DNA from: Thermodesulfovibrionia bacterium
GTDB taxonomy: Bacteria > Nitrospirota > Thermodesulfovibrionia > JACRGW01
Length of the DNA: 64,000 bases
NCBI GenBank assembly: GCA_919902995.1
Contig: CAKKSD010000008.1
Location: forward strand, 10,922 to 74,921
Direction of reading: 5' to 3'
Under the pieces are notes generated by a model. It was not told the DNA's origin and ran no database searches. It saw only the letters and a list, made by a program, of their open reading frames with translations. Positions 31,477-49,686 of this stretch are shown one piece after another (within the stretch, counting starts at the first letter, position 1; every line of letters begins with the position of its first letter). A program made the position numbers and the translations under genes.

Positions 31477-31482
31477 ATCTTC

Positions 31483-32151: not shown

Positions 32152-33251
32152 CTTAACACCTCCATGTGGTTATTCATCTTCTCATAAAACTCTCTTGTAT
32201 AAATCAGGTACAAAATCTCACCGGTTTCTGGGTCACGCCTCTCTTCTACAACATAGAGGTCAGGATATTGCCTTGCTATATTGGGTGTTATAGTATCACC
32301 ACCACCGATAACTCTCACAGGCTGGTCAGTCAGAGAGAGAGGCTCAGCCTCTATTCCTTGATCAAGTGTTTCTGTTGCCGGGGTCGCATAGTTTTCTGAA
32401 TTCATGTTACCTTTCTCTCTTGGCGGAGTACCCTCTATTACAGGTGTTGGAGTTAAACCTGCCTGTCTCGAAGCTTCCATAAGAGTGGATTCCTGTTGGC
32501 GATTCCAGAACCTTCTGATACTTTGGGATAGCCCCGATAATCGCTCACTGCCTCTACCAATAACCTCCTCAATTCTGTCCTCAATTTTACTAAGATTAGT
32601 CATTACATGCAGGAAAAACACCTCCGTTAAGAGTGAAGCTATTATATGAAAGATTAATAGTACAAATGGAAAAATGATTACTATTTTTCTATAAAACTCC
32701 CCTTCATGTCTCTTTAGGATGATATTAAAATCTGGAGTTGTTTGTTGTATTACCTTTATAGCATCCCCCTGTAGAACTTTCTGGAAGTCCATAGGCCAAA
32801 AGTACTTTGCCATTTGCATCTGAGTCACAGGTATCATCCACAGGTTGAATAAACCACCATAGAGGAGTAAAGCTATAACGGTTGTTATTATTAAAGGCTG
32901 TAACAATGAAATAACTTCAGTTTGATTTCGGTTCAAAATGAGCCTTTGTGTGGTTCCTATAACTCCTATAAGGCTATAAATAATATAGAAGGTTCCTATA
33001 AACATTAACATAGTTGTTGCAAAACCAAATACCATACCAGGGCTTATATACCCGGATGGAATTCCTAAAAATGTCAGTAATGCTTCAATCTCCTTAGGGA
33101 ACTTCACATTAGGAAGTGCCAATTTTGCACCACTAGCCTCAATATGCATGGTGGAGATAATTACTGACAAATCCACAATGACCACAAAGAATAAAAATCC
33201 CAGAAATCTTAGTGTGGAAATAATATTGTTGATATTGATTCTTTCTGGCAT
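32148..33251 (-). CDS. polytopic membrane protein with C-terminal soluble domain
   Basis: Multiple hydrophobic helices and a hydrophilic 100-aa tail. Overlaps the vWA gene start. Confidence 0.4.
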   Translation of the reverse strand: MPERININNIISTLRFLGFLFFVVIVDLSVIISTMHIEASGAKLALPNVKFPKEIEALLTFLGIPSGYISPGMVFGFATTMLMFIGTFYIIYSLIGVIGTTQRLILNRNQTEVISLLQPLIITTVIALLLYGGLFNLWMIPVTQMQMAKYFWPMDFQKVLQGDAIKVIQQTTPDFNIILKRHEGEFYRKIVIIFPFVLLIFHIIASLLTEVFFLHVMTNLSKIEDRIEEVIGRGSERLSGLSQSIRRFWNRQQESTLMEASRQAGLTPTPVIEGTPPREKGNMNSENYATPATETLDQGIEAEPLSLTDQPVRVIGGGDTITPNIARQYPDLYVVEERRDPETGEILYLIYTREFYEKMNNHMEVLR

Positions 33252-33450
33252 TATACTTTACCTCCTTTCCTCTTTTGCTACATCATCATATGGTACAGCC
33301 AGATACCATGGTATGAAAAAAACACTTTTGATAACTGCTACCAGTGCAATTAATGCTAAAAATATTATTAAAACCTCTATGACCATCTTTTATCCTCCAT
33401 TTTTATAAATTTCAATTTTTAATTGGCAAACCTTTGTTCCAATTTAAACA

Positions 33451-33999
33451 TCAAATAACCTCATCTATTAACCCAAACTCCTTTGCCTCTTCTGATGTCA
33501 TTTCTTTCGCCTCTCTGCATGCCTTTATAACTTCTTCCATTGTCCTACCTGTCCTTTCAGTAAGAATCTTATAAATAGATTGTTGGTCTCTTTTAGTATC
33601 GTGCAGGGTTTTCTCTAAATTCTCCTCAAATTCATGCCATTCCTTAGTTGTCTTTATGTTATGTAAGACTATCTGGCTATGTCTAAGTGCCTTTCTCGTC
33701 TTGCAGGCCTGGAGGACAATTGATGCCATAGAGTTTGCGCACCTGAACACTATCCCTGTAATAGGAGCCTTTGAGTGCCTCACGATATCGTAGAGGTCTA
33801 AGCCTGCTGTCACAGTCCCCCCGGCACTATTTATATAAAGGATTATCTCACTTGAATCGTCCTGGGCATTCAGCCATAAGATAGATGAACCAATCCATTT
33901 AGCCATCTCATGGGTAACTTCTCCCTCTATATAGAGGGTTCTCTTTTTAAGAAGGTCATCCAGGAATTTTTCCCGGTTCATATCATTTACTTGGCACAT
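33451..33999 (-). CDS. ClpP-family (S14) peptidase-like protein
   Basis: ILYINSAGGTVTAGLDLYDIV / CANSMASIVL / IVLHNI align with ClpP LYINSPGGVITAG / GQAASMG / VMIHQP (Ser and His present). The Asp position is not obviously conserved. Confidence 0.65.
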   Translation of the reverse strand: MCQVNDMNREKFLDDLLKKRTLYIEGEVTHEMAKWIGSSILWLNAQDDSSEIILYINSAGGTVTAGLDLYDIVRHSKAPITGIVFRCANSMASIVLQACKTRKALRHSQIVLHNIKTTKEWHEFEENLEKTLHDTKRDQQSIYKILTERTGRTMEEVIKACREAKEMTSEEAKEFGLIDEVI

Positions 34000-34002
34000 T
34001 TT

Positions 34003-34344
34003 CTACTCCTTTGGTTTCCACCTTTGATTTATTCTGAATATCTCTTTACCAATATGGGAAGATAAAGCCTGACAGCATTCATTCTCAAGAACATCTTTTG
34101 TCTCTTTATACTCTAACTCCATAGCCTTTTCACCGCATTCAGTAAGCGTCTCTTTTGCCCTGTCTACAATTTTGAATGTCGGAGGGGTCTGTATGCTCCC
34201 ATCTTTGGCAAAGAACCAGATTACATTAATCCAAGACTCGATCCTCTTAGCCCACTCTCTCTCAAACCTTTCAGGATCTTCCTGAGCAAGCCTTGCTAAG
34301 AACTTCCTGCGTCTTTCTTTCCTTCTTGTTGTTGCTTTACCCAT
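34003..34344 (-). CDS. hypothetical protein with basic N-terminus (113 aa), first gene of the operon
   Basis: ORF only. The MGKATTRRKERRRK tail suggests nucleic-acid binding. Confidence 0.3.
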   Translation of the reverse strand: MGKATTRRKERRRKFLARLAQEDPERFEREWAKRIESWINVIWFFAKDGSIQTPPTFKIVDRAKETLTECGEKAMELEYKETKDVLENECCQALSSHIGKEIFRINQRWKPKE

Positions 34345-34510
34345 ATTTTCTTTTTCCTTTAAATAAACACTTTTGGTGTTTATTCCTGCCTATTCGGTTA
34401 GCCCTTTCGGCTTATTTATAATTTCTATCTTGCTATACCTTTAGCATAGTCCTTCGCATATTAAAATCCTGCACATATCCGTTTTATATCTTTCTTAATT
34501 CTTTCCCCTT

Positions 34511-34857
34511 TTAGGCTATCTCCTCGCCAGCGGAAAGAACGAGATCGAGACCTTCTTCCAGCGCACTTGCTATCTCATTCAGGTCTGTAGCTCCACGTTT
34601 CTTAAAGCGGACTTTAATGTCCAAGGTTTCGCTGGCAATTATTGCCCGTTCATTTTCTATGGTAATTTCACCCTTCATTTCTTTTATCACCCTCTTTCTT
34701 AATGAGTCGTGATATTTACTGTTGGATACATCCAGATTATCGATTTATACTTAACCATTGTTATTGACATATCCCGAATCTCATCTTCAGTGCCGAACAT
34801 TGTGAAATAGTCTATTGTAAGTTTTTCGTTATATGCCGCCATTGTTTCCTCCTCTTG
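34511..34857 (-). other. GC-rich patch with two short coupled ORFs (48 aa and 55 aa), possible degraded TA or acquired module
   Basis: MAAYNEKLTIDYFTMFGTEDEIRDMSITMVKYKSIIWMYPTVNITTH and MKGEITIENERAIIASETLDIKVRFKKRGATDLNEIASALEEGLDLVLSAGEEIA. An SD precedes the second ORF. Confidence 0.2.
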
Positions 34858-35067
34858 AATATAGTTTCATAAATAACGATGAAAAAATAAAAATTACATA
34901 ATGGTTCGAAAAAGATACTCAGGCTGATAAGCTGTCGCTGAATCTTTTGGGGTATTGAATTTCTCTACATGTATCCTCATGATTGCAGGATACGAGAAAT
35001 TCTGGAGGAATACTATTACAGGATTATCCGAAGATTATCTTTGAGAACTTTAAGATTAGGATAGGTT

Positions 35068-35949
35068 TTATTTGTTCTTCTGGGGAGATTTGAAATTTAA
35101 TGCCTTTTCTATCAAGTCTAATCTTTCTTCTATATCTTTTTTAAATTTTTCAAATTGCGATTTGGTAACATATGGGTTTTTGGGAATCCTTGGGTCTGAG
35201 AGAGGAACTACCGAACCTATTACCAGTTTAAGCTGCCCTTTTGCACAGCTCTCTTTAGTTAAAATACCCCAAGTATTCCAGTCGGTTCCTTCACGGGCAT
35301 TATTATTAATCATGTTATGTGCCTTATTTAATTGATCTGAGGCGAGTGCAACACTAACAGGTCTATTTGGTGAGGATATACAATCCTGAATAGCCTGTTT
35401 TGCAGTTATCGGGATATTAATACCAAAAGATTTCTCTCCCATGGAAAGAGTTATAGTCTCCATTCCATCGTATTCTAAGTGCCAGCCCTTATTTTCACAA
35501 TCCTCAATAACAGCTCGAGAAAGATTTTTCAGTTTTCCTTGAGTGTCTGTAGAAGAGAGTTCCTTTTTGACAACATAGTGAATAACATTGCGTTTATGTC
35601 CTAAACTAATTTTAGTTCCAGTTTTAGTAACGCGGGTTAATACAATAACTTTTAGCTCTGGTCTGTTCTTTATTAAGTCTTTTGCGATTTCATCTCCCTG
35701 TTTTTTCTGCCGAGTAAATTCAATATCAAGTAATACTAATTTAATATTGTTATCCTTCTTCGCAGCATCGATTCCTTCTTCACCAAGAGTTTCAAATACT
35801 ACTTCGTAAGGAGTCAACTTATAAATGCCTTCAAGAATTTGTTTTAAGGTTGTATTTACAGAAGTATCAATTATTTGATCGGGGGTATCATCAATGCATA
35901 ATATTTTAGTTTTAGCCATTGCTATCTTCTCCCTTGATTTTGTTTTCAA
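35068..35949 (-). CDS. receiver (REC)-like domain protein with unknown C-terminal domain
   Basis: KILCIDDTPD...KLVLLDIEF...KVIVLT shows the Asp, Asp, Thr, Lys spacing of a CheY-like fold. Confidence 0.4.
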   Translation of the reverse strand: MKTKSREKIAMAKTKILCIDDTPDQIIDTSVNTTLKQILEGIYKLTPYEVVFETLGEEGIDAAKKDNNIKLVLLDIEFTRQKKQGDEIAKDLIKNRPELKVIVLTRVTKTGTKISLGHKRNVIHYVVKKELSSTDTQGKLKNLSRAVIEDCENKGWHLEYDGMETITLSMGEKSFGINIPITAKQAIQDCISSPNRPVSVALASDQLNKAHNMINNNAREGTDWNTWGILTKESCAKGQLKLVIGSVVPLSDPRIPKNPYVTKSQFEKFKKDIEERLDLIEKALNFKSPQKNK

Positions 35950-36541
35950 GCCTTTTGCCTATTCCATGTGCTATCGAAGACCAATCCTTTTCTTTTTCAA
36001 TATCTTTTGTTGTATCCTCTATTTCCTTTGTTAGCTTTTTATCCTTTAAATAATTGCCTGTCGTGTGTAATATTTCTATGCACCGTTCCTTATCTTTAAG
36101 CAAATCATGGCTTAACAGCTTTAGTAAGTATCCTTTATAACCAGAATCACTTCCGCAGATAGCTTTCCTTATAGCCTGACTGGAAATAGGAATCATATTT
36201 TTTAATAAATCAATAAACTCCTTCAGGTTAAAAGGAATCCTTATATAGGCATGATTATAAGGATGGTCATGAAATATTGGGAACTCCTTTTCAAAAGATT
36301 CCTTTTCCTTAAATCCAATTACAACAATAGGATTAAGGTGTTTTGACCTTATCGTTTCATAAAACAACTCGTGTATTCTATCTTCAGGGGTTGATATTAG
36401 TACCACTCTATTTTTTTTCTTTAAAGAGTCATTCGTAAATAGAAGCACGGTCATGCTGCCTACTGCACTTAGTGCCCTTTTAAAGGATTTATAAAGTTCT
36501 TCATTTTTAGAGATAAAAACTATTTTTTTATTACTTCTCAT
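35912..36541 (-). CDS. hypothetical protein (209 aa), possibly degenerate receiver-like
   Basis: KIVFISKNEE...VVLISTPED...PIVVIGF alternate as in a flavodoxin-like fold. Confidence 0.3.
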   Translation of the reverse strand: MRSNKKIVFISKNEELYKSFKRALSAVGSMTVLLFTNDSLKKKNRVVLISTPEDRIHELFYETIRSKHLNPIVVIGFKEKESFEKEFPIFHDHPYNHAYIRIPFNLKEFIDLLKNMIPISSQAIRKAICGSDSGYKGYLLKLLSHDLLKDKERCIEILHTTGNYLKDKKLTKEIEDTTKDIEKEKDWSSIAHGIGKRLENKIKGEDSNG

Positions 36542-36657
36542 ATATTGTCCTTCTCACTATCTCTTGTGTCCTCTAAGCTTAAATTATCTTATATCTTATA
36601 ACACAAAAGAATATCTCAGAGATATCCCTTAAATATTACCTTATGTAGAACAAATCT

Positions 36658-39384
36658 TTAAGGCTTACTCTTTGCCCTCAAATATTCTTTTGTCAGGCGG
36701 AATGAAACTTTATTGCTTTCTATTTCTACTGGTGTATACATCTCGGGCTTTAAAGTACCGAAGGGTGAATCGATACTTCCATCATCCATTTTAACTCCGA
36801 GCCACAAACCATCTTTAAATGGCGGACAGAACTTTCTCTCATCTTCTTCATGCGAAAGCCTGGACTTAATTAGATTTAAGAAAAATAGTGGAATCTGTCT
36901 TTTTATTCTATCAAGACATAATACAAAATAGAGATATCTAAAAAGATTATGAGTTTTTTTAGCTTCTGCAGTTTGCAAATTGTTTTCAAGCATAAGAAAC
37001 ATCGCTTTCTTTAAGATGTCCTTATCAGCGAGGTCACAATATTCGTCCGCAAAAGAACAATCTTGTGGGCAAGCATTGTTGCAGATAGAATGAATCATAT
37101 CTTCCACTAATTTTGGTGTAAGTTCCCATTTTGAGCAAGGGTCTTGCCAATCAGTCTCCATATCTATACCAAGGGCTTTAAAGATAGCAAGAAAGGCAAA
37201 AAGTGCATCAGTAAATCTTAGATCAACATCTGGATGCGCAGCCGAATGACGAAGCTGGAAGGCAATAAAAGGATAGATATTCTTATCTTTTGACAATTTC
37301 CCTTTTGTTAATCTGATATACATTTTTAACGGGTTATAAATTTGAGAGTTTGTATCTCCTCTTTCCCAAACCAATTCTATGATGTTGCCCAACATTATGA
37401 GGGTTCCAATAAGATAGGACGAATCCCTCTCTTTAAGATATCTTTTTAAAGAAGAATACGCTGCTTCTAACAGCAGAACCGTTTCATTCCTCTTTATCTC
37501 GCCAATTGTTGAAAATCTATTGAAAGTTTCAATACCCTTCCAAATCTTTCTTAGGGCCTTCCTCTCCTGACATGTTGTATTTTCAATCAAATTCTTAAAC
37601 TCTGTATAGTATGCCACCGCTTCATTTTCACTCTGATATTTGCTTTCTTTTTGGAAATATCCATCTATTCCTCCTTTTATTTTTTCAGCATCTTTTATAT
37701 TGAAATGTCTGGTCGTTGCAGTAAAAAGAATTACCGGAACTGCAATATCTCTTTTTCTTATTTCTCTTAAAAGACTTATGCCACTGAACTCTTTATGCAG
37801 TGGTTTACCATGAGGATACTTTTTCTTTATCTCTTCATCTTCTTTTGTAAGGTATAAATCCAGCAAAATAAGATCATAATCGGTTAATCTGCGTGTAGCT
37901 TCATTTATTCTGGAGTCATTCAATAAATCATCCCCACTTTGCCATTCTTTGCCTATTGCCTCCACTATATCATTTCCGAATAAAACCTTAATGGTCTCTT
38001 CCCATCCTGCCTTTTTTGCTTCATCATCTATAAGTAATACCTTTTTACCTCGTAATATTTCCGAAAGAGGTCTTTCCACTGATAATTTGTGCGTCTGTTC
38101 TGATAATGTCTCATCGCCTGTATCAGTTATGCCTACTGCTATAGCATCGTAAATTTCAATTTCTTCCCAAGCATTTTTATCTCTTTCTTGCAATTTTTTT
38201 AATACTCCTCTATAGCTGGCGCTATCAATATTATCAACATAATAAGCACCTTTTAGGAGTGAATAAGGGGCGGTGAAATTTCTCCATGCGTGTTGCAGAA
38301 TACCTTCTGAGGTTAAATCACAGCTTTGTTTTATATACTCTTTCAGTGTTTGAGCGGACAATGATTTATTTGCATTTTTTTGTATCATGCTCATGACGTC
38401 TATTAAGGAGAAGGGAATAGTTACAAACTCAACACCTTTTGCAAGTAATACAAAGTATCTTCTGTCTTTTTCAATAAGATCCTGGAGTCTATTTAAGGAA
38501 ATAAAAATGACTGGAGGGGGATTATTTTTATATTTGATAATCTCTGCCCAATACCTTCTTACAAAATAAATATAATCGGAGTTGACTTCAAAGTCTAAAA
38601 TAATAATAAGGGAAACATCCTTTAGTAATTTTTCAACTGCTTTTTGTGCGGAATCGATAAATGATTTACACTCCCATAAATATGAATTCTGAGATGTTGT
38701 TTGTGAAAGCTCTAAATACCTCTTACTTCTCTCCTCTATCATTTCCTGCCAATATTCCTCTAATAATACTATATGAGCTCCTTCAGGTATTTGTAATATA
38801 AGGTTCTCCATTTCTTTTACTATAGACACATATTTTTTATAAAACTCCATTAATCTCATGGCATTTTGTCTTTTTAATCTATCCTCTATTCCCTCAAGAT
38901 TATTTAGTCTGTTATTCTCTATAGCTTTTTTTTCATTTTCTAAATTTTGTTTTTTTATCACTAATAAATTAAAATTCTCTATTATTTCGGGCATTCTTAT
39001 GTTACCTTCGCTCTTTTTATATGCCCCTGCCATAATTTCCCCCAGCCTATTTATCTCCCTCCCTATTAAATCAATTTGTTCCTGCAACTGACTACATATA
39101 TCCTCTGTTAATCTTTCAAGTTCTTCGTTTATTTTCGTCTTTTTACTCTGCTCAAGTCTGTTATTTAAACTTGTTTGTAGTTCCTCTGCCTTTTTTTTAA
39201 ATTCCTGTGGTAATTCTCTAAAAGCATCTGATATTTGCCTTTGTATTTCCAATAGAACTTTACTATAAGATATGATCTGAAGATCATATTGGTTGTAAAA
39301 AAGTGAGTTTAATGCCCTTTGAAGTGATATGGAGGTTTCGTTAAGGCCATCAGAAACAATCAACACTTTCCTTTTCTTATCCAT
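36658..39384 (-). CDS. large multidomain protein (908 aa) with central REC domain and coiled-coil region
   Basis: KKVLLIDDEAKK...DLILLDLYL...PVILFTATT...GYFQK is a canonical receiver. RHSAAH near the C-terminus could be an Rx4H HEPN-like motif (speculative). Confidence 0.5.
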   Translation of the reverse strand: MDKKRKVLIVSDGLNETSISLQRALNSLFYNQYDLQIISYSKVLLEIQRQISDAFRELPQEFKKKAEELQTSLNNRLEQSKKTKINEELERLTEDICSQLQEQIDLIGREINRLGEIMAGAYKKSEGNIRMPEIIENFNLLVIKKQNLENEKKAIENNRLNNLEGIEDRLKRQNAMRLMEFYKKYVSIVKEMENLILQIPEGAHIVLLEEYWQEMIEERSKRYLELSQTTSQNSYLWECKSFIDSAQKAVEKLLKDVSLIIILDFEVNSDYIYFVRRYWAEIIKYKNNPPPVIFISLNRLQDLIEKDRRYFVLLAKGVEFVTIPFSLIDVMSMIQKNANKSLSAQTLKEYIKQSCDLTSEGILQHAWRNFTAPYSLLKGAYYVDNIDSASYRGVLKKLQERDKNAWEEIEIYDAIAVGITDTGDETLSEQTHKLSVERPLSEILRGKKVLLIDDEAKKAGWEETIKVLFGNDIVEAIGKEWQSGDDLLNDSRINEATRRLTDYDLILLDLYLTKEDEEIKKKYPHGKPLHKEFSGISLLREIRKRDIAVPVILFTATTRHFNIKDAEKIKGGIDGYFQKESKYQSENEAVAYYTEFKNLIENTTCQERKALRKIWKGIETFNRFSTIGEIKRNETVLLLEAAYSSLKRYLKERDSSYLIGTLIMLGNIIELVWERGDTNSQIYNPLKMYIRLTKGKLSKDKNIYPFIAFQLRHSAAHPDVDLRFTDALFAFLAIFKALGIDMETDWQDPCSKWELTPKLVEDMIHSICNNACPQDCSFADEYCDLADKDILKKAMFLMLENNLQTAEAKKTHNLFRYLYFVLCLDRIKRQIPLFFLNLIKSRLSHEEDERKFCPPFKDGLWLGVKMDDGSIDSPFGTLKPEMYTPVEIESNKVSFRLTKEYLRAKSKP

Positions 39385-39437
39385 CGCGGACTCCTCAACA
39401 GGAAATATCTTTATAAAATTTTATTTTTTAATTCTAT

Positions 39438-40223
39438 CTATTCATTACTTCTATAGCTTTCTCTAAGACATTCAGCAAGGGCGCAATACCAGTCGTGGAA
39501 GGAGTTAATCTCCTTGTCCTTCCAAGAATCTTTTAAAAGCCTTTTGGGATCGTTTTCTCTTTTAATAAGGTTTTGGAAAAAAACCTGAGCATCATTAATG
39601 ATGCCACTAAGCCTATTTTTATCTATTCCCTCGATTTCCGACAGTTCTTTTATCTTCGATTGTAATATTCCAAATTTATCATAATAATCAGTATTGTCAT
39701 TATACATTTGGTTTAAGTAATCTCCTTTTTTATTTTCTTCCAAAAGTTCCAATGCCTGCATGTCTATGTCGAGAGGGAGGAAGAGGTGGAGGAGATAGGT
39801 TGTAATCTCTGACAGTTTTTCTTTAGATCTCCACGAGTCTCGCAAGCTTACTATTGTATTTACATTCCAATTACCCTCATTACATTTCTCTTTTACATAA
39901 CTACCTACACCGCAGATGTCAAACCATTTACATTGTCGAGCAATATTAATAAATTCTGAAGCCTCGGATTTGCCTATTTTAAGGACAAGTCCTGAAGGAA
40001 ATTTGCTATTTATAGCAGTAATTTTTTCTTTCAGCTCTGAGCTGTCTATACCAGAGGCAGATAGATGCCATAACAGAACTATATTTTTAGGGTCGCTTGA
40101 AGACTTTAAGAATGATTCAATCGTATCAAAATGCGATCTTAATTTTTGAGGAAATTTCCCTTCCCCAAAAAAATCATTGAAAAAACTCTCTTTCTCAACT
40201 GTTATAAAGGTATAATTAGACAT
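39438..40223 (-). CDS. hypothetical protein (261 aa)
   Basis: ORF in a tight operon. No family recognised. Confidence 0.35.
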   Translation of the reverse strand: MSNYTFITVEKESFFNDFFGEGKFPQKLRSHFDTIESFLKSSSDPKNIVLLWHLSASGIDSSELKEKITAINSKFPSGLVLKIGKSEASEFINIARQCKWFDICGVGSYVKEKCNEGNWNVNTIVSLRDSWRSKEKLSEITTYLLHLFLPLDIDMQALELLEENKKGDYLNQMYNDNTDYYDKFGILQSKIKELSEIEGIDKNRLSGIINDAQVFFQNLIKRENDPKRLLKDSWKDKEINSFHDWYCALAECLRESYRSNE

Positions 40224-40226
40224 ATT

Positions 40227-42098
40227 TTACCTCCACATCAAAGGGAACTTTATTTCATAAGTAACAGAAGATTCTGAATTTTTTAAGTCTTTTTCTTCGT
40301 ACATGTCTTTTTTTACTGTAATCTCTTTGTTTTTTTCCCTAAACACTATTGATAAATCTGAAAGATCATCTCTGAAGCGATCCATTATCCACTGAATAAT
40401 ATAATGTCCAAGCCCTGTTAACTTAGTCCAGTTTATATCCTCACCGTTCAGATATCTATGAATATCTTTAGGAGTAACTTTACGCTGGCCTTCAGAAAAT
40501 CCAAATTTAAAATTTTTACCCTTTTGAATATATGTCAATTTATTGGCTATAAATGAAATATCTGTATATTGTATATTTGCATCTTCGTAATTTTGAAAAG
40601 TGTTTTTTATCAGGTTGTATAGAATACATTCAACTGCTGGCAAATAAATATATCTCTCTGGGGGGATATCCATTTTAGGGAGTTCGATATTATCCTTTTG
40701 TCGATTTTTTCTATATACGTCATTAAATATTTTCCATATTTGAATTATTTCATCTTTAAGATGGACATCTGTTAAAGGATCTTTATCATCGGTTATCTTT
40801 TCACCGAACAGTTTAACCATAAGCTTAGTTCTCCTATCAATTACTCCTTTTATGAAATCTATGTTTTCAATACTTATATCGCTCATAAGTCTTGTAGTAT
40901 CATGTCCGTAACCCTTATGGAATTGTATATTCTTTTCTGTGATTTTTATTAAGCCAAGAACATCATCAATTGCTAACTCTATTCCTTTTGAATACATTTC
41001 CAGTATGTTTTCTTCAAAATCAAAATATAAAATAAAAGCTATATCTTCTTTCTTGATATACAAACCACTTTTCGGTTTTAAGTATTTATCGGTGTTATGA
41101 ATATTACATATTTCACCTAAAGATATTATTTTAATTGAAGCATTCCCATAACTGAAATTATTACATATTACACATGATATTTCTTTCCATTCAGGAAACA
41201 ATTTAGAACCATCCTGCTTATCAAACGATAGGCGTCTAAATATATTGTCTTTTTCTCTCATACATGCACCAGTAATATTAAATAAGATTGGTAGTCTTAT
41301 AAAGACAGTTTTCAAAACGTCAAAGCCATTGCTCGGAAGGTCTTGAAGAACTACTGATAAGAATTCAAATTCCTTTGCATCTTTGATTGAAGTAATACCT
41401 AATTCTTTTACTAATTGTAAAAACCGTAGATAATCATAGGGGGTAAATTTCTCTTCTGTCTCTGCGACAAAAGCAATCCCTGCTATTTGACCATATAAAG
41501 GAATATGAGACATTATTGCACTTTTTATTTTAAGCCCTTCCCAGAAGAACCCTTCTAAAGTGTTAATTATAGATGTAAATGAAATTTGTTTATTAGCTAA
41601 TATTAAGTCATTTTCAATATATTCTTCTGCACCACTATACTTATTAAATTGCCCTTCATTATAAAAAAACCTTGGAACTCTCGTATGAAATGTTTGCCCT
41701 GTTACTCCGTAATGGCGACTTATCGGGGTGTTTAACAATAAGTCCACGAAAATATCAATTAAATTATTTTTATCACCATTTGCGTTTTTAGGTAAGCTGT
41801 TATTTAAAAAAGCTTTAGTGTTTTCATTTGATACCTCTTCATACCACCTTTTTATTTCTTTGTCAGAATTAATTACTTCCTTTGCTTTATTTAAAGCCTC
41901 AGTTAATCTTTTTAGATCCACATTATTAGAGCGGATATATTCTTTAAAGTATTCCCTGCCATAATAATGAAAGCATTGGGTTTTAGATTTTAAAAGTATT
42001 ATAAATGGAGGTGTTTTCAAATAGAACTCGTCTTGAAATCTCTTTGCTATTTCTGTCAGAGTACTATCTATATCTTTTTTACTGCCCATCTCTTGCAT
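40227..42098 (-). CDS. hypothetical protein (623 aa) with possible C-terminal histidine-kinase-like ATPase
   Basis: Candidate H-box GYGHDTTRLMSDI, N-box-like ILYNLIKNTFQ and G2-like LTGLGHYIIQWIMDRF about 100 aa apart. Weak. Confidence 0.35.
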   Translation of the reverse strand: MQEMGSKKDIDSTLTEIAKRFQDEFYLKTPPFIILLKSKTQCFHYYGREYFKEYIRSNNVDLKRLTEALNKAKEVINSDKEIKRWYEEVSNENTKAFLNNSLPKNANGDKNNLIDIFVDLLLNTPISRHYGVTGQTFHTRVPRFFYNEGQFNKYSGAEEYIENDLILANKQISFTSIINTLEGFFWEGLKIKSAIMSHIPLYGQIAGIAFVAETEEKFTPYDYLRFLQLVKELGITSIKDAKEFEFLSVVLQDLPSNGFDVLKTVFIRLPILFNITGACMREKDNIFRRLSFDKQDGSKLFPEWKEISCVICNNFSYGNASIKIISLGEICNIHNTDKYLKPKSGLYIKKEDIAFILYFDFEENILEMYSKGIELAIDDVLGLIKITEKNIQFHKGYGHDTTRLMSDISIENIDFIKGVIDRRTKLMVKLFGEKITDDKDPLTDVHLKDEIIQIWKIFNDVYRKNRQKDNIELPKMDIPPERYIYLPAVECILYNLIKNTFQNYEDANIQYTDISFIANKLTYIQKGKNFKFGFSEGQRKVTPKDIHRYLNGEDINWTKLTGLGHYIIQWIMDRFRDDLSDLSIVFREKNKEITVKKDMYEEKDLKNSESSVTYEIKFPLMWR

Positions 42099-42721
42099 AA
42101 TTTTTCACCAGTCTTATTTAAAGGCCCTAAACCATTTTCGCCACATGCTTTCTCTCGATCATCTGTAAAAAAACAATCGTGTTGCTCATTCGATAAAAAT
42201 AACTCTCTAGCAGTTTGTTGCAAAAAACAAGCTGTAACATGACGAGATATATATTCTTTAATATCCTCAATATCCTCTATAGGCTGAAGTCTTGAAAATA
42301 AGAGGAATGAACCAATTTCTTTCTTGGAACAGTAGCCACGCTCCTTATCAATTTTTTGAAAACAGCCTACTACCTTAATTGGGATATTGAGGCAACTTTT
42401 GGCTACACTGATATGAGGAATGCTGTCTTTCAGTTCTTTGCAGGATTCGCAATGTTCACGATTTAGCCACCATGAATTTTTTGAGGTTTTTAGAAGTCTT
42501 TTTAAATCATTTTTTTGCTTTTCTAATAAACAACTTGTAGCTATTATATCTTCTTCTATATAGGCAGCACCTAACGTAAGATCAAAAAGAGGTTGGAAAT
42601 ATTGTAAGAAAATTCGGAAAAGGTCATTACTGGGATATATCGAAACTAAATCAGCATAAATATATGAAAAGATTACATCGATATCTGTCTTATCTCTTGG
42701 TGCATCAGGCAAAAGAGACAT
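42068..42721 (-). CDS. hypothetical Cys-rich protein (217 aa)
   Basis: HCESCKELK...CLNIPIKVVGC...CSKK Cys pattern. Confidence 0.3.
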   Translation of the reverse strand: MSLLPDAPRDKTDIDVIFSYIYADLVSIYPSNDLFRIFLQYFQPLFDLTLGAAYIEEDIIATSCLLEKQKNDLKRLLKTSKNSWWLNREHCESCKELKDSIPHISVAKSCLNIPIKVVGCFQKIDKERGYCSKKEIGSFLLFSRLQPIEDIEDIKEYISRHVTACFLQQTARELFLSNEQHDCFFTDDREKACGENGLGPLNKTGEKLCKRWAVKKI

Positions 42722-42739
42722 ATCATTCCCCTAATTGAT

Positions 42740-43789
42740 TCATCTCCAGCAGGCTGGATCAGAAGCAAAGACATCACCAGTCATTGCAAAGGTTCTGCAC
42801 CTGCATCCAAAACATTCACCTTTCAATGCACAACTGCCGCATTTCCCTTTTAAATTGTCCTCCATGTTTCTAACATTTCGTAAAAAGTCGCTATTCCATA
42901 TTTTCTTTAAAGACTGTTTACGAATATTGCCTGCATTTATAAATATACTATAACATGGCCTTACATCGCCCTGAATACCAACAACCATATTCACATATAC
43001 AAGTTGACATTGTGAAGCAACAAAAGGTGGTCGTGGTTCCCATGTGTACCCAAATTCAGATTCATCGATCTCAAGCAGTTTATAAGTCAAATCTCTAAAT
43101 TGCTCGTTAGTTATATCGAGGTCTTTTCCCTTTGCCCTCCCCGAAAGGAATACTCTACAAATATATGGAAATATATTGTTTCTTCTTGCAAAGCGAAAAA
43201 TCTCGGATGCTTCTCTGACAGTTTCCTTAACTATAAAAGAGTCTATAGCAATTCTTGTGGGATTTACTTTATTAAAGCCGGCATCCATCAGGTTATGAAT
43301 CCCCTGCATCATCTTTTCATAAGCCCAGGGAACACCACCACATAGTTTGTTTTGCACCTCAGGCCTCATGCTATTCAGAGTAGCCACAACTGTCACAGGA
43401 CTTTCATATAAAATCTTCGCAGTGCTTTTGTCAATCAATGATGCGTTTGAATAAAGTATGAGATACAAACCTCTTTCTTCAATTAATTTGAGGATCTTAA
43501 AGAAATTGGGATCAAGAAGAGGTTCTCCAGCGCCAGCGATGGCTACCTCTCTTGCACCGAGTTCTACTGCCTGGTCAAGTATACTCTTATATTCATCGAG
43601 TGTTAATTCATTAGCTAGTTTTTTCCCTGCATCCGTATAACAATAAATGCATCTAAGGTTACATATATTGCTGGTTTCTATGCTAATGACAAGCATTCTG
43701 TTTTGTGCCCTCGCCTTTTTAATTTCTTCGAAGGAGAAATCAAGTCCTTTAAGTTTAGGAGGGCTGCTTAATGCTATAATAGTTTTCAT
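42740..43789 (-). CDS. radical SAM enzyme with C-terminal SPASM/twitch domain
   Basis: CNLRCIYCY (CxxxCxxC) at the N-terminus. C-terminal CGSCALKGECFGCRCRTFAMTGDVFASDPAC is typical of SPASM auxiliary clusters. Confidence 0.7.
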   Translation of the reverse strand: MKTIIALSSPPKLKGLDFSFEEIKKARAQNRMLVISIETSNICNLRCIYCYTDAGKKLANELTLDEYKSILDQAVELGAREVAIAGAGEPLLDPNFFKILKLIEERGLYLILYSNASLIDKSTAKILYESPVTVVATLNSMRPEVQNKLCGGVPWAYEKMMQGIHNLMDAGFNKVNPTRIAIDSFIVKETVREASEIFRFARRNNIFPYICRVFLSGRAKGKDLDITNEQFRDLTYKLLEIDESEFGYTWEPRPPFVASQCQLVYVNMVVGIQGDVRPCYSIFINAGNIRKQSLKKIWNSDFLRNVRNMEDNLKGKCGSCALKGECFGCRCRTFAMTGDVFASDPACWR

Positions 43790-44574
43790 ATCTTTGTCCC
43801 TCTAAGGATATTGATATCCTTAGATTCATTCTCCAATTGCATTTTCTTAATGTTTTCGAAACCCGCATTTTTAAAGGCCCTTAATAAATCATCTTCAAAA
43901 ACGAAATACCCATCTATTGTTACCAATTTATGAGAAATGCTATTACTCTCCCTATCGAAAAAGACAAAAAAGATATTATATGTCCTTGAGTTCTCTTTGT
44001 AATCTAAAATATAAAAGCTTACAATATCTTTTGAGCCAAATTGTAAATGTGCTCGGTGCTCAAATAGAGGTTTTTCCTGGATTACTGCTTCATAGTTTCT
44101 TATATCAATATAGCAAAGTCCGCCTTTCTTTAAAAGAGTGCCCATATTTTTAATTGCTATCTCAAAATCATTAGGTTCGATATGAGAAAAAGAATTGCCC
44201 CTGCAAATTACTGCATCAAATTTCTCCTTAATATTCGATGATAAATCAAGAATATTTGTTTGAAAGAAATTTATATTTTTTATTCCTGCTCTGATAGCAT
44301 TAGAGATTGATCTCTCTATCATTTTGCCGCTTATATCAGAACCAGTAACCTCATATCCAAGCTTTGCAAGTTCAATGATCATATGGCCGGTTCCGCATGA
44401 GCAATCCAAGATTTTCTGAATACCTAAAGGTTTCAAAAGTTTCAAATCAAGTTCTTGGGCTATTTTTTTATTTATCCCTTCAATATCAGTATAGAGAAAG
44501 TGATAATATTCAGACAGTTCATCGTATAGTATCTCTACTTGCTGATATGATGACGTTTCTAATTGTAGTTTCAT
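43786..44574 (-). CDS. class I SAM-dependent methyltransferase
   Basis: Motif I ILDCSCGTGHMIIELAKLG, followed by D-acidic and CRGNSFSHI motifs. Confidence 0.7.
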   Translation of the reverse strand: MKLQLETSSYQQVEILYDELSEYYHFLYTDIEGINKKIAQELDLKLLKPLGIQKILDCSCGTGHMIIELAKLGYEVTGSDISGKMIERSISNAIRAGIKNINFFQTNILDLSSNIKEKFDAVICRGNSFSHIEPNDFEIAIKNMGTLLKKGGLCYIDIRNYEAVIQEKPLFEHRAHLQFGSKDIVSFYILDYKENSRTYNIFFVFFDRESNSISHKLVTIDGYFVFEDDLLRAFKNAGFENIKKMQLENESKDINILRGTKI

Positions 44575-44581
44575 TTCTGAG

Positions 44582-45694
44582 TTACTCCTTTATAGGTACA
44601 AACTGCTTGTTCTTTACGGTCTTAAACATTACTGATTTAATGACATCCCCATTCCTATCAAAATTGGTCTTCCCTGAAACGCCAGGATAATCCTTTAGCT
44701 TGTATAAACCATCCTTTATTGCATCAGGATTATAACCGGTTTTTCCGATCATTAGTGCCATAATTTTTGTTGCGTCATATGTAGTTGCAGCAAAGATTTC
44801 GGACTTCTTTCCGAATTTTTTCATATATTCTTGCTGATATGCTTTTACTGTTGGATCATGACTATCCGGATCGAAGGCAGGGGCAGTATAAACCAACCCT
44901 TCAGCACTGTCTCCCGCGATATTGATCAAATCAGGTCCTTCTATCCCGACGGTACCTAATATCTGAGCCTTTATATTTAGTTCCCTTGCTTGCTTCACAA
45001 CATGACCATTTTCTTTTGCATGACCGACTAAATAGATTGCTTCTGGATTGTATTTCTTAATTTTTATAAGTTGTGGTCTCATATCAGAAATACCTTGTTT
45101 ATATGTTTCAGTAATTAAAACTTTCCCCCCCTGCTTCGAGAACTCTGTCTTAAATACATTTGCTACCCCGAGACCATATTCATTATTAATATGTAAAATT
45201 GCAACGTTTCTATATTTCTTTTTAATGACATAATTGGCCATAGCAGACCCCTCAAAATCATCTGATGGCCAGTTGCGGAATATGTAATCGCCAGCCTTTG
45301 TGATTGCAGGACTTGATGACGAGGACATAATAACCACCTTTGCTTTCTCACATATTGGTGCAACCGCAAGTGTTACAGTGCTTGGTATGGGTCCTATTAT
45401 TACTTTAACCTTATCAACATTTATTAACTTATTTACCGCTGAAACTCCTTTTTTAGGTTCAGCAGCATCATCCTCATAAACAACCTCTATCTTTTTACCG
45501 TTGATACCCCCTTTTGAATTTATTTCATCCACAGCAAGGCTAATTCCACGCTTTCCCCATTCTCCATATTGTGCAGCGTCTCCACTAAGAGGCAATATCG
45601 CTCCAATCTTATAAACCTCCTCTGCAATTGAAGTTGTTATAACCCCAAAAACCAGAATGATGGCCAAAGCTATTACTAATAATCCTTTCTGCAT
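44582..45694 (-). CDS. livK: branched-chain amino-acid ABC transporter substrate-binding protein
   Basis: Signal peptide and the LivK/LivJ family pattern YKIGAILPLSGDAAQYGEWGKRGISLAVDEIN. Confidence 0.75.
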   Translation of the reverse strand: MQKGLLVIALAIILVFGVITTSIAEEVYKIGAILPLSGDAAQYGEWGKRGISLAVDEINSKGGINGKKIEVVYEDDAAEPKKGVSAVNKLINVDKVKVIIGPIPSTVTLAVAPICEKAKVVIMSSSSSPAITKAGDYIFRNWPSDDFEGSAMANYVIKKKYRNVAILHINNEYGLGVANVFKTEFSKQGGKVLITETYKQGISDMRPQLIKIKKYNPEAIYLVGHAKENGHVVKQARELNIKAQILGTVGIEGPDLINIAGDSAEGLVYTAPAFDPDSHDPTVKAYQQEYMKKFGKKSEIFAATTYDATKIMALMIGKTGYNPDAIKDGLYKLKDYPGVSGKTNFDRNGDVIKSVMFKTVKNKQFVPIKE

Positions 45695-45747
45695 TTCAGA
45701 CCTCCTTAGTCTTTATATGTTCATAAATTTCTATGCATTTTCCAACA

Positions 45748-46449
45748 TCAAGCATGAACAAGCCTCCCGCTGATAGCTTCTTTTATATTTTCAGGTAAGC
45801 CTTCAAATGCGACCTGACCGTTTTTTAAGAGATAACCTCTGTGAGCTATCTTTAATGCCTCTCCCACTTTTTGTTCCACAAGCAAAATAGCCATGTTATA
45901 GGTTTTGCTAATTTCAACAATCTTCTCCATAATTCCTTTTACAAGCCTTGGAGCAAGTCCTGCAGATGGTTCATCAAGCAGGAGAAGTTTTGGTCTATTA
46001 AGCATTATCATGCCAAGTGCAAGCATCTGTCTTTCACCACCAGAGAGAAGCCCAGCCCTTTTATTGAGTTTATCTTTAAGCAATGGGAAAAGGTTAAGGG
46101 CACCTTCTACCCGTTCTTTAAAGATAGATTTCTTAAGGTTTGCCCCTCCCATCTCAAGGTTTTCATATATACTCATGTCATTAAAGACCGCTCCACCCTG
46201 AAGAAAGTAACCCATCCCCATTGATATTCTTTTATTGGTTTCTAAACTGGTAATGTCAATACCATCAAAAACTATTTTACCGCTCCTTGGGGAAATAAAA
46301 CCCGATATAGCCTTAAAGACAGTTGACTTCCCAGCGCCATTAGGCCCAATGAGGGCTACTATCTCATCTAAATTAACTCTTATAGAAGTGCCTGTAAGAA
46401 TCTCTCTGCCATTATATCCGGCATGTATATTCGTTAGTTCGAGCAGCAT
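45748..46449 (-). CDS. livF: branched-chain amino-acid ABC transporter ATP-binding protein LivF
   Basis: GPNGAGKST Walker A, LSGGERQML signature, LLLDEP Walker B. Confidence 0.8.
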   Translation of the reverse strand: MLLELTNIHAGYNGREILTGTSIRVNLDEIVALIGPNGAGKSTVFKAISGFISPRSGKIVFDGIDITSLETNKRISMGMGYFLQGGAVFNDMSIYENLEMGGANLKKSIFKERVEGALNLFPLLKDKLNKRAGLLSGGERQMLALGMIMLNRPKLLLLDEPSAGLAPRLVKGIMEKIVEISKTYNMAILLVEQKVGEALKIAHRGYLLKNGQVAFEGLPENIKEAISGRLVHA

Positions 46450-46451
46450 CT

Positions 46452-47201
46452 TTAAATCCCTATATAAGCATCCATAACTTTTTGATTGTTAAGAATTTCC
46501 TCTGGCAATCCTGCCGCTGTAATTTTACCAGAATCCATAAAATAAATATAGTCAGAGATTGCCTCCACTGCATCCATATTATGCTCTACAGCAATTATCG
46601 TTTTACCAAGCCCTTTAAGCTCTTTTATTTTCTCCAAAATGGTATCTGCCATGTCAGGGTTGACCCCGCTTACAGGCTCATCTATAAGCAATAACTCAAA
46701 ATCCCCGCATAAAAGCCTTGCAAGGCTCAAGAGCTTCTGCTGACCCCAGGAAAGATTCTCCGCAAGATGGTCTTTCTTATCAGCAAGTCCAACAAAATTA
46801 AGCCATTTCATTACTGTCTCGATTTTTTTTCTCTCTTTTCCATTCCTTCTCCCAAAGATAGCCCTGAAAGGATTTTCAGAATTATCATTGAATGTGACAA
46901 GGAGGTTCTCAAGAAGGGTAATCTTTTTAAAGACCCTTATATCCTGAAAGAGCCTTCCGATTCCTGATACAGCCCTCCTCCAGGGATCTAATAGAGTAAT
47001 ATCTCTCTCTTTATAGATTATTCTGCCCTTGTCCGGGTATAGGTAGCCACATATGAGATTAAATAGCGTAGTCTTACCAGCACCATTCGGCCCTATTATG
47101 GCTGAAATCTTGCCTGCCTCTACCCCCAGATCAAGGTTGTCTATCGCCTTAAGCCCGTCAAAGTTCTTTGTAAGGCCCTCTAATCTCAGTATATTACCCA
47201 A
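46452..47201 (-). CDS. livG: branched-chain amino-acid ABC transporter ATP-binding protein LivG
   Basis: GPNGAGKTTLFN, LSWGQQKLLSLAR, LLLIDEP. Confidence 0.8.
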   Translation of the reverse strand: MGNILRLEGLTKNFDGLKAIDNLDLGVEAGKISAIIGPNGAGKTTLFNLICGYLYPDKGRIIYKERDITLLDPWRRAVSGIGRLFQDIRVFKKITLLENLLVTFNDNSENPFRAIFGRRNGKERKKIETVMKWLNFVGLADKKDHLAENLSWGQQKLLSLARLLCGDFELLLIDEPVSGVNPDMADTILEKIKELKGLGKTIIAVEHNMDAVEAISDYIYFMDSGKITAAGLPEEILNNQKVMDAYIGI

Positions 47202-48063
47202 ACCTGTACTCCCCTGCTAACCCCCATGGCCTGAACCTCATGAGAAGTATCAGTACCATGGCGTATATTATCTGCCTGACATTCGGCGCTACACTGTCCG
47301 GGATTCCAAGGAACCTTAAGCCCTCTGGCAGGAGGATCATCAACAGGGTACCTATAACAGGTCCTCTGAGGTTTCCTGAGCCACCAACTAATACAATCGA
47401 GAGTATAAATATAGACTCATCAAGGTTGAAACTTGTAGGGTCTATATATGTTACATAGGATGCATATAGCGCACCAGCCACTGAAGCCATACCGCTACTT
47501 ATAGCGAAGGCAAGGATTTTAAATTTCTTTACATCCTTACCAATGGAGGTGGCTGAGAGTTCATCCTCCCTTATGGCTTTGAGCACGAGTCCGAAGGGGG
47601 ATGAATAGAGTCTTTTTGCTATTAAGAAAACCCCAAGGGCCAGCCCTCCTGAAAGGACAAAGAACTTATAAAGGTTGTCAAAACTTATACCTAAAATCTC
47701 TGGTCTCGGTATGCCAGGGATTCCATAGGGCCCTCTTGTGAGGTCAATCCAGTTGTATAGGATTGTAAAGATAATTATCTGAAAGGCCAGGGATGCAAGT
47801 ATAAAATAATCGCCATGCAGTCTGGTGGATGGATAAGAGACTAAAAGTGATACAGCTGCGGAAAAAACAATTGCAATTGCCATACAGACAAAGAAGTTAA
47901 TCCCCATTTTCATCATAAGAAGTGTCATCACATAGGCACCGATGCCGTAGAAGGCAGCCTGTGCAAGGCTTAAAAGGCCGGTATAACCCACAGGAAGGTT
48001 TAACGAAAGTGCAAGGATTGTGTATATAGATATCATAATCAGGATGTGAAGCAGGTAGTTCAT
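47194..48063 (-). CDS. livM: branched-chain amino-acid ABC transporter permease LivM
   Basis: Polytopic permease with the LivM-type GYTGLLSLAQAAFYGIGAY pattern. Confidence 0.75.
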   Translation of the reverse strand: MNYLLHILIMISIYTILALSLNLPVGYTGLLSLAQAAFYGIGAYVMTLLMMKMGINFFVCMAIAIVFSAAVSLLVSYPSTRLHGDYFILASLAFQIIIFTILYNWIDLTRGPYGIPGIPRPEILGISFDNLYKFFVLSGGLALGVFLIAKRLYSSPFGLVLKAIREDELSATSIGKDVKKFKILAFAISSGMASVAGALYASYVTYIDPTSFNLDESIFILSIVLVGGSGNLRGPVIGTLLMILLPEGLRFLGIPDSVAPNVRQIIYAMVLILLMRFRPWGLAGEYRFG

Positions 48064-49657: not shown

Positions 49658-49686
49658 AGAAAAAATGAAGTTGATTCATTTTTTTC
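49658..49686. terminator. AT-rich hairpin gaaaaaatgaa-gttgat-tcatttttttc downstream of the NYN gene
   Basis: 9-bp stem followed by a T run. Immediately abuts the first cassette repeat. Confidence 0.35.

Follow-up and report, generated by a model that had tools for sequence, protein, structure and literature searches.

An importer-linked operon of kinase-like, receiver and radical-SAM proteins that may gate a toxic effector

Why should a Liv-type ATP-binding cassette (ABC) importer share an operon with two S-adenosylmethionine (SAM) enzymes and a set of divergent, phosphorelay-like proteins? The question is raised by a locus in the 64,000-nucleotide (nt) stretch of DNA analysed here (the window, to whose full length all coordinates refer unless a locus is named). 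A sequence-only reading had described eight minus-strand genes, mostly encoding uncharacterized proteins, as an operon that begins after livK. All eight open reading frames (ORFs) are present where it placed them, and the spacing of 7 nt from the livK stop to the methyltransferase gene was verified, but the boundary was wrong: the livHMGF-K genes (44582-48935) belong to the unit. In our best reading, 35068-48935 is one 13-gene unit, entirely on the minus strand, made up of livHMGF-K and eight genes of previously unrecognized function. We propose, with a confidence slightly short of even, that it encodes a two-component-like phosphorelay which is linked to the importer and gates a toxic effector, and that the operon is horizontally mobile.

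The genes are tightly packed. livM overlaps livH by 4 nt, and the junctions from livK through the methyltransferase, radical-SAM, 217-amino-acid (aa), 623-aa, 261-aa, 908-aa, 209-aa and 293-aa genes measure +7, -4, +18, -31, +3, +53, +116 and -38 nt. GC content at third codon positions (GC3) is 0.25-0.34 from livF through the 293-aa gene; most flanking genes lie at 0.41-0.52 and two at 0.36-0.37. We read the low values as foreign composition. A promoter and terminator scan gave signals at chance level, uninformative on transcript boundaries, and neither Rfam families nor tRNAs were found in the window. Among the eight proteins encoded after livK, confident recognition by profile libraries (Pfam, NCBIfam) is limited to the methyltransferase and the radical SAM/SPASM enzyme. 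Scans of all eight and of their divergent homologues against Pfam, NCBIfam and PADLOC returned only these two and weak receiver (REC) matches, and four proteins (623, 217, 261 and 209 aa) match nothing in the three libraries. NCBI annotates these four as hypothetical, from a Nitrospirota metagenome-assembled genome (MAG). Because identical contig sequences have been deposited for Nitrospirota as well as for Nitrospinota MAGs, the source taxonomy is uncertain.

The case for a single unit comes from homologous metagenomic loci, designated here by L-numbers; most are short contigs, and several are possibly from related organisms. Homologues of the 623-aa protein form 12 clusters among 5.8 billion proteins and occur in one of 185,579 species representatives, a member of the Brocadiaceae, with one further fragment in JGI metagenomes. 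Within the reach of each contig, the order livH-livM-livG-livF-livK, methyltransferase, (radical SAM), 217, 623, 261 is kept in nine other loci; a tenth match, L014, is a gene fragment only. Every contig that extends far enough upstream (L004, L005, L006, L009/10, L011/12 and L013) carries the liv genes there, and we accordingly count them as members of the unit and not as neighbours. The gap between livK and the methyltransferase gene is 1-7 nt across loci, a Candidatus Brocadiaceae MAG included, and the recurrence of this junction overturns the earlier treatment of the liv operon as a mere neighbour. The suggestion that the eight genes form a conserved block held up: homologues are syntenic in other genomes rather than scattered. 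Sequence identity on the sensor side is much lower in the cluster loci (38-47% for the 623-aa, 27-34% for the 261-aa and 39-57% for the 217-aa protein) than that of the LivK-like protein, which at 69-80% (72% in the Candidatus Brocadiaceae MAG) is among the best conserved of the cluster.

Two divergent variants extend the comparison. L001 encodes a different radical SAM/SPASM protein, a polar-amino-acid-type ABC importer (SBP_bac_3, permease and ATPase) and a 953-aa protein that is weakly histidine-kinase-like, followed by 261-like, 908-like (41% identical) and 209-like genes. L016/L017 begins with a LivF fragment, a single-domain REC protein, a LivK-like binding protein (36% identical), an M20 amidohydrolase and a radical-SAM protein, and continues with a 1291-aa protein resembling GAF and histidine-kinase proteins, then 261-like, 908-like (32%), 209-like and 293-like genes; of the two variants, it is the one in which a 293-like gene is seen. 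At about 30-40% identity, both appear to repeat the same logic of an importer or binding protein, a radical-SAM enzyme, a giant sensor and a receiver module. Since a binding protein or importer, a small-molecule enzyme, a radical-SAM protein and receivers co-occur at about 30% identity, inherited synteny alone is hard to sustain as an explanation. A further locus, L015, has the order 261-908-209-293 with a 209 homologue that is 79% identical. In all, the sensor family was seen in about a dozen loci and the effector family in about 30 sequence clusters. Every carrier is an uncultivated bacterium of groundwater or sediment type, and the distribution is patchy and cross-phylum (Brocadiaceae versus the window's Nitrospirota/Nitrospinota MAG).

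Table 1. Genes and domains of the 35068-48935 unit, in order of transcription.
Feature	Coordinates	Strand	Remarks
livH-like ABC permease, 291 aa	48060..48935	-	orthologues (54-79%) head the cluster in L005, L011, L013
livM-like ABC permease, 289 aa	47194..48063	-	59-85% identical in L004, L005, L009, L011, L013
livG-like ABC ATPase, 249 aa	46452..47201	-	47-74% identical orthologues in cluster loci
livF-like ABC ATPase, 233 aa	45748..46449	-	53-73% identical orthologues
LivK-like periplasmic binding protein, 370 aa	44582..45694	-	signal peptide; altered pocket
Class I SAM methyltransferase, 262 aa	43786..44574	-	glycine/sarcosine N-methyltransferase-like; Methyltransf_25 E 6e-20
Radical SAM/SPASM enzyme, 349 aa	42740..43789	-	Radical_SAM 3.9e-20, SPASM 3e-12
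217-aa Cys-rich protein	42068..42721	-	homologues always directly upstream of, and overlapping, the 623-aa gene
623-aa cytoplasmic sensor (putative)	40227..42098	-	modelled GAF domain(s), helical hairpin, histidine-kinase-like GHKL domain
261-aa protein, conserved partner of the large protein	39438..40223	-	homologues in all variants, including L001, L015, L016
908-aa multidomain protein	36658..39384	-	split inactive-receiver-like domain with coiled-coil insert, REC, HEPN-like, Cys-rich C-terminal domain
REC domain of 908-aa protein, aa ~445-600	37585..38052	-	Response_reg in 17/21 members
HEPN-like domain of 908-aa protein, aa ~632-765	37090..37491	-	R712-x4-H717, D726
209-aa pseudo-receiver-like protein	35912..36541	-	REC-like beta/alpha pattern ending '..IPF', without acidic pocket (alignment)
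293-aa REC protein	35068..35949	-	Response_reg E 2.8e-4; conserved C-terminal domain, coiled-coil tail

The candidate effector is the 908-aa protein. A word-indexed search retrieved two relatives and an exhaustive HMMER search 28 representatives at E<=1e-30. Many family members are about 700 aa long and lack the coiled coil, which in the long forms is inserted into the iREC-like region and in the window protein spans roughly 200 aa. More distant relatives combine Pfam iREC and Response_reg with a variable C-terminus, which in one of them (P0048) is a KH RNA-binding domain, and on the strength of these iREC-REC relatives we place aa ~255-340 of the 908-aa protein as an inactive receiver. In a family alignment of 21 sequences with 25% mean identity, the REC residues D453, D509, T555 and K579 are conserved in at least 90%. 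The Pfam REC scores of the window's proteins (24.7 bits for the 908-aa and 21.5 bits for the 293-aa protein) lie below the cut-off of 30.2; the REC domain first noticed by eye in the 908-aa protein is thus sub-threshold in Pfam yet keeps its catalytic DD/D/T/K residues across the family. PADLOC gave only a weak, REC-level match, to PDC-M60B.

Behind the REC domain lies the feature that suggests toxicity. Across all 21 sequences of the 908 family only three columns are invariant, R712, H717 and D726, within a motif that reads qlR-x-x-A-A-H-x(6-8)-f-E-D; the R-x4-H region, RHSAAHPDVDLRFTD, was verified at 37207-37251, and what had been flagged as a possible Rx4H motif now stands as R712-x4-H717, invariant in 21 of 21 homologues. 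The sole Pfam family matched by more than one member of this region is DUF4145 (3 of 20, best E 0.011, below cut-off). DUF4145 is a HEPN family (PMC3710099) and forms the RNase domain of RAZR (PMC13017515). An hhalign comparison of the HEPN-like profile with an NTase_sub_bind HEPN protein was negative. From the motif and the sub-threshold matches, we describe the C-terminal domain as putatively HEPN-RNase-like.

The gene that occupies this position is not constant. In its place, L007, L009 and L011 encode an unrelated protein with a flavodoxin-like N-terminus and two predicted C-terminal transmembrane (TM) helices (hhalign probability of 0.1% between the two types). In L011 it is still followed by 209- and 293-like genes. 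The 293-like match behind it in L007 is weaker, and the contig of L009 stops before this point. L004 carries a C39-peptidase-like gene in the slot. Judged from these sequences, the downstream side of the unit acts as an exchangeable effector module, with a HEPN-like, putative RNase or a membrane protein according to locus. Such exchange of nuclease-like and membrane-type proteins behind a constant sensor is a pattern of abortive-infection systems, among them the defensive two-component system Detocs, which uses a REC-effector together with a buffer REC (10.1101/2023.01.24.525353).

The candidate sensor is the 623-aa protein, for which structure modelling gives GAF domain(s) and a histidine-kinase-like GHKL domain. 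Its AlphaFold2 (AF2) model, built from 12 sequences, is of medium confidence, with a predicted local distance difference test (pLDDT) score of 63. A Foldseek search with the model ranks a full-length bacteriophytochrome first and PDE6 tandem GAFs next; the best structural matches are 9eut, the PDE6 GAFs and the CA domains of DevS and VraS. Two long helices between the GAF and GHKL-like domains carry a conserved H399, and the family also conserves N495, N499, a GLG motif and five invariant cysteines. TM segment prediction was empty. The weak H/N/G-box-like C-terminus remarked on earlier finds backing in this model; given its medium confidence and the small number of motifs, we treat the kinase identity as putative. 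The 217-aa protein has no Pfam, NCBIfam, PADLOC or PDB-profile match, and hhalign between the 217 and 623 families was negative. Its Cys-rich tail is absent in L009 and L011 and present in L007 and L013. PDB sequence-profile searches with the 623, 217, 261 and HEPN-like families gave no usable match.

The C-terminal half of the sensor occurs in at least three unrelated-looking versions behind a conserved N-terminal region of about 390 aa: the window type, with 'YGHDT'; an L009/L011 type, with 'NFSHIT'; and a longer type with 'RNMSHNIGSHVL', common to L006 (4242-6992, 916 aa) and L016 (4537-8412, 1291 aa). The 1291-aa protein of L016 has a weak GAF match and shares a module of 'MSHNIGSH' plus N-box with the 916-aa sensor of L006, whose gene precedes an MNT/HEPN-type pair (Polbeta + NTase_sub_bind).

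Three smaller proteins flank the large one in gene order. The N-terminal REC-like domain claimed for the 293-aa protein is borne out by its Response_reg match and by conserved pocket residues: DD, D75, T105 and K128 are kept in homologues from L015 (60% identical), L011, L016 and L007. Because these homologues begin at Met11 of the 293-aa ORF, translation probably starts at the ATG at 35919 (283 aa), which would shrink the overlap with the 209 gene from -38 to about -8 nt. With an acidic pocket, the Asp, a Thr/Ser and the Lys found in both the 908 and 293 families, the divergent phosphorelay-like set proposed earlier is present. Homologues of the 209-aa protein follow the large protein in L001, L007, L011, L015 and L016, the last with a weak FleQ REC-like match (E 0.09), and from its sequence pattern the protein looks like a pseudo-receiver. 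For the 261-aa protein we found no family or PDB match (Pfam, NCBIfam, PADLOC, PDB profile), and hhalign between the 261 and 908 families was negative. It conserves the motifs LPLDIDMQAL and SFHDWYCALA, and in our own reading its N-terminus may be flavodoxin- or REC-like.

At the head of the unit, the importer is recognizably of the Liv type. Precomputed Pfam annotation of the livH-like orthologues is BPD_transp_2, and the livF fragment of the divergent variant L016 is 58% identical. In the PDB the LivK-like protein matches 3td9 (E 6e-52) and E. coli LivJ (E 9e-42), and it keeps LivJ Tyr18, Ser79 and Tyr150; 'ILGTVGIEG' is invariant in seven cluster orthologues. The LivJ-type set of ligand contacts is incomplete, with Tyr202 replaced by His and Glu226 by Val, both invariant in the same seven orthologues, whereas Tyr and Glu/Asp occupy these positions in three amino-acid binders of solved structure. 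In LivJ, Tyr202 and Glu226 contact the alpha-amino group of the ligand, and because these positions are changed the ligand of the LivK-like protein may not be a free alpha-amino acid. NCBI labels the protein (44582-45694) 'penicillin-binding protein activator'.

Small genes, of toxin-antitoxin type or other, are inserted at the same site between livG and livF in three related loci: a DUF433/DUF5615 pair in L009/L010 (L009 1532-2193), a UPF0175 gene in L011 (3029-3307) and a 92-aa plus 163-aa gene pair in L013 (5213-5985). The window has no such insertion; a 56-57% identical DUF5615/DUF433 pair lies at 50647-51311, 1.7 kb upstream of livH.

Two SAM enzymes follow the binding protein. The first, already assigned as a class I SAM methyltransferase and now supported by the Pfam match in Table 1, has as its closest solved relatives a glycine/sarcosine N-methyltransferase (GSMT; 5gwx, E 1e-18) and glycine N-methyltransferase (GNMT). 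It is not a GSMT equivalog (78 bits on NCBIfam NF051855, cut-off 350), and its orthologues in seven loci are 48-69% identical. The second had been described as a radical-SAM enzyme with a SPASM/twitch C-terminus. The SPASM part stood and the twitch part did not: the sequence holds the CX3CX2C core and the full seven-cysteine SPASM set, CX12GX4C...CX2CX5CX2CXC...C (domains by Pfam, cysteine pattern by reading of the sequence). Its best NCBIfam matches are AhbD (135 bits, cut-off 500) and NirJ2, others are SPASM peptide-modifying types (WgkB, StsB, PqqE, MftC), and all fall far short of their cut-offs. Orthologues are 79-96% identical in L003-L006, L009 and L011. As L007 and L013 lack the gene at this position but keep everything else, the radical-SAM enzyme cannot be essential to the core, and peptide maturation is unlikely as the core function. 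The earlier idea of signalling around a radical-SAM-modified product is partly supported.

Other roles for the radical-SAM enzyme that had been raised were also followed. An assignment as an anaerobic sulfatase-maturing enzyme finds no backing, TIGR03942 not being among the 25 best NCBIfam matches listed and no sulfatase being found among the ~30 flanking ORFs scanned. A precursor peptide was looked for among short ORFs in the 723-nt gap downstream of the operon and in related loci, and none is conserved; PqqD/RRE is absent from the window and not conserved in orthologous loci, and a PqqD in L005 is assigned to a neighbouring, divergent radical-SAM protein. We dropped a viperin-like function (the PADLOC pVip similarity, E 1.6e-14, covers the radical-SAM core only) and tetrapyrrole chemistry of the AhbD/NirJ kind (scores far below cut-off). 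CheR-like protein methylation was likewise set aside, a partial 25-bit match being its sole support. In L007, 8779-10214 holds a 63-aa ORF followed by a radical SAM/SPASM protein that reaches 306 bits against the model of the dynobactin maturase DynA (cut-off 450), probably an independent modified-peptide (RiPP) cluster beside the locus.

From the observed gene order, conservation and domain assignments (GAF, GHKL-like, REC and Rx4H) we propose the following scheme, whose biochemical steps, direction of signal flow, ligand and physiological role we infer. A dedicated Liv-type importer would take up an amino-acid-like small molecule through a binding protein with a non-canonical pocket. The GSMT-like methyltransferase and the radical SAM/SPASM enzyme may then process the imported or a related molecule, a part that the M20 amidohydrolase and radical-SAM protein would play in the sister variant. 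The cytoplasmic 623-aa protein, with the 217-aa protein as partner, would sense the product and phosphorylate the 908-aa and 293-aa proteins on their REC domains, with the 261-aa and 209-aa proteins as possible adaptors or buffers. Phosphorylation would activate the HEPN-like RNase domain of the 908-aa protein, leading to growth arrest, dormancy or abortive infection.

Several observations weigh against this scheme. HisKA and HATPase_c are not recognized in the 623-aa protein by Pfam or NCBIfam, nor GAF by Pfam; its G1 box is unclear, and the model pLDDT is 63. The AF2 model of the 908-aa protein, built from two sequences, has a pLDDT of 41, its HEPN-like region being helical at about 30-45; a PDB profile search with the HEPN-like family returned nothing, and the DUF4145 matches are sub-threshold. 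No PADLOC defence model matches any of the uncharacterized proteins, and neither a plasmid tblastn search nor a scan of viral contigs (run without the 908 alignment) gave homologues. Two loci that are otherwise complete, L007 and L013, have no radical-SAM gene at its usual position. A metabolic or regulatory role would also fit how strongly LivK, the radical-SAM enzyme and the 209-aa protein are conserved. We also know of no toxin-gating system that uses a nutrient importer.

A bolder version of the phosphorelay-gated scheme, which we hold considerably more loosely and rate as rather unlikely, is an undescribed class of system. Import and SAM-dependent tailoring would make or capture an amino-acid-derived community or danger signal, which would pass through the GAF kinase to active and inactive receivers and on to interchangeable suicide or dormancy effectors: in effect, an 'import-and-sense' quorum or alarm circuit wired to a toxin. 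A search of the literature on iREC, REC-HEPN and this gene combination found no description of such a system.

Upstream of the unit lie a NYN nuclease, PIN toxins and toxin-antitoxin (TA) cassettes. At 49685-53700, upstream of livH, small TA-type cassettes form an array: a PIN protein (133 aa) with an 81-aa partner, DUF5615-like (115 aa) with DUF433-like (105 aa), PIN-like (167 aa) with 69 aa, and a 76-aa plus 86-aa pair. Five copies of a 74-nt repeat, 61-100% identical and spaced 620-950 nt, separate the cassettes, and the 81-aa gene recurs in an exact 298-nt duplication (50144-50441 = 51583-51880). Judged by layout alone, the array looks integron-like. Downstream, a minus-strand cluster at 28016-33999 encodes a ClpP-like protease (182 aa), a 367-aa protein, a VWA protein (222 aa), a classic AAA ATPase (508 aa; IetA-like in PADLOC, 2.7e-17), a 267-aa protein and a second radical-SAM protein (388 aa), and may be a separate conflict or quality-control system. 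Between it and the operon end lie a 113-aa gene (34003-34344), whose N-terminus is 41% identical to a 61-aa ORF in L015, and the 723-nt gap (34345-35067), which has no ORF longer than 59 aa and in which no RNA family was detected.

Among the alternatives to a gated toxin, the one that survives best, though we consider it unlikely, is an ordinary, non-toxic regulatory phosphorelay for the uptake and catabolism of an unusual amino-acid derivative. Importer and enzymes would form a regulated pathway, the GAF kinase would sense its substrate, and the 908-aa and 293-aa proteins would be output regulators, for example by RNA binding or antitermination as in AmiC/AmiR-type circuits. That the importer, methyltransferase and radical-SAM genes are the most conserved (60-82% identity) agrees with such a pathway, as do a binding protein that is a genuine member of the LivJ/AmiC superfamily, the KH domain at the end of P0048 and the absence of PADLOC matches. 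Against it stand an output slot that in other loci is filled by a two-TM membrane protein and the strictly invariant R-x4-H/D catalytic-type motif, and no DNA-binding output domain was detected. The divergence of the sensor and receiver proteins, much faster than that of the enzymes (27-47% versus 70-80% identity), also speaks against this reading, as do the very low GC3, the patchy cross-phylum distribution and the TA-rich surroundings.

Less probable again is strict anti-phage abortive infection of the Detocs kind, in which the kinase senses infection and the importer, methyltransferase and radical-SAM enzyme make or modify an antiviral or self-marking molecule instead of supplying the input signal. 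The histidine-kinase-like, REC-effector and extra receiver-like proteins do mirror DtcA, DtcC and DtcB, the effector alternates between RNase-like and membrane-type, and the neighbourhood contains NYN and PIN proteins, TA cassettes and the IetA-like AAA ATPase. The similarity of the radical-SAM core to pVip models is generic and confined to that core, and viperins lack SPASM domains. Neither sensor nor receivers match a PADLOC model, where Detocs is covered only if included in that release; phage or plasmid copies were not found in the scans described above; importers that depend on a substrate-binding protein (SBP) have no known defence role; and a GAF sensor points to small-molecule rather than protein input.

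A cluster for a ribosomally synthesized and post-translationally modified peptide (RiPP) or another small natural product is very unlikely. The radical SAM/SPASM enzyme and methyltransferase would tailor a peptide (possibly the Cys-rich 217-aa protein or an unannotated short ORF), with the ABC system for transport and the phosphorelay for regulation. SPASM enzymes commonly mature peptides, in keeping with the NCBIfam matches to WgkB, StsB, PqqE and MftC; the methyltransferase weakly resembles a daptide methyltransferase (NCBIfam, E 7e-14), and short ORFs adjoin radical-SAM genes in L001 (55 aa) and L007 (63 aa). The L007 ORF goes with the separate DynA-like enzyme, however, and neither a conserved short ORF nor PqqD/RRE was found in the window or most loci. 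Presence of the radical-SAM gene is uncorrelated with the Cys tail of the 217-aa protein (tail without enzyme in L007 and L013, enzyme without tail in L009 and L011), and the transporter is an SBP-dependent importer, not an exporter.

Chance adjacency of a housekeeping branched-chain amino-acid transporter and an unrelated operon is already largely refuted and has next to no probability left: the binding protein is clearly LivJ-related and some synteny may be inherited among loci possibly from related organisms, but the same 1-7 nt junction occurs in all loci including the Brocadiaceae MAG, a binding protein or importer recurs in two variants of only 30-40% identity, two ligand-contact residues of the pocket are unlike those of solved amino-acid binders, and GC3 is shared from livF onward.

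If the phosphorelay-gated toxin is correct, two-component signalling that drives toxic effectors, as in Detocs, would extend to a far larger, importer-fed architecture with radical-SAM chemistry. At least six protein families now called hypothetical would gain first functions, and a LivJ-like binding protein with a non-amino-acid pocket and a new HEPN-like RNase family under receiver-domain control would be identified. The proposal hinges on few residues (H399, D509, R712 and H717), and its impact is limited by the extreme rarity of the system.

Several parts of the unit have a recognizable counterpart from which they depart. The importer shares the five-component architecture of the LIV-I transporter (LivJ/K-HMGF), with a LivJ-related binding protein, but is co-operonic with signalling genes and has His/Val for Tyr202/Glu226 in its pocket. 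The 623-aa model resembles GAF-histidine kinases (bacteriophytochromes, DosS/DevS) in its GAF domain(s), helical linker and GHKL ATP-binding domain; it differs in having no GAF, HisKA or HATPase_c profile match, in its five invariant cysteines and in the replacement of the kinase-like half by the 'MSHNIGSH' type in L006 and L016. Distant 908 homologues have the iREC, REC and variable C-terminal domain of iREC-REC regulators (Pfam PF22563 + PF00072), an architecture for which our literature search found no published description, whereas the iREC-equivalent of the window protein is too divergent for the Pfam model and carries the ~200-aa coiled-coil insert. With the DUF4145 HEPN RNases (RAZR / PD-T7-4) the 908-aa protein shares an invariant R-x4-H in a helical region, weak DUF4145 matches and a Cys-rich segment beside it; the HEPN-like domain of the 908-aa protein follows iREC and REC domains, however, and would presumably be controlled by phosphorylation, as opposed to assembly on phage rings.

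Detocs offers a close parallel to the whole. No PADLOC match indicating homology to DtcA, DtcB or DtcC was obtained for the 623-, 261-, 209- or 293-aa proteins (Detocs models being covered only if present in that release), and the sensor here has GAF domains in place of TPR repeats, the effector is HEPN-like rather than a PNP ATP nucleosidase, and the extra (pseudo-)receivers lack the phospho-acceptor Asp. The unit described here also adds an ABC importer, a SAM methyltransferase, a radical-SAM enzyme and two further unassigned proteins. Both nonetheless combine, in one operon, a cytoplasmic sensor kinase or kinase-like protein, a REC-effector fusion and additional receiver-type proteins, with an effector domain that is exchangeable between loci, and the logic common to the two would be that of a toxic effector gated by phosphorylation.

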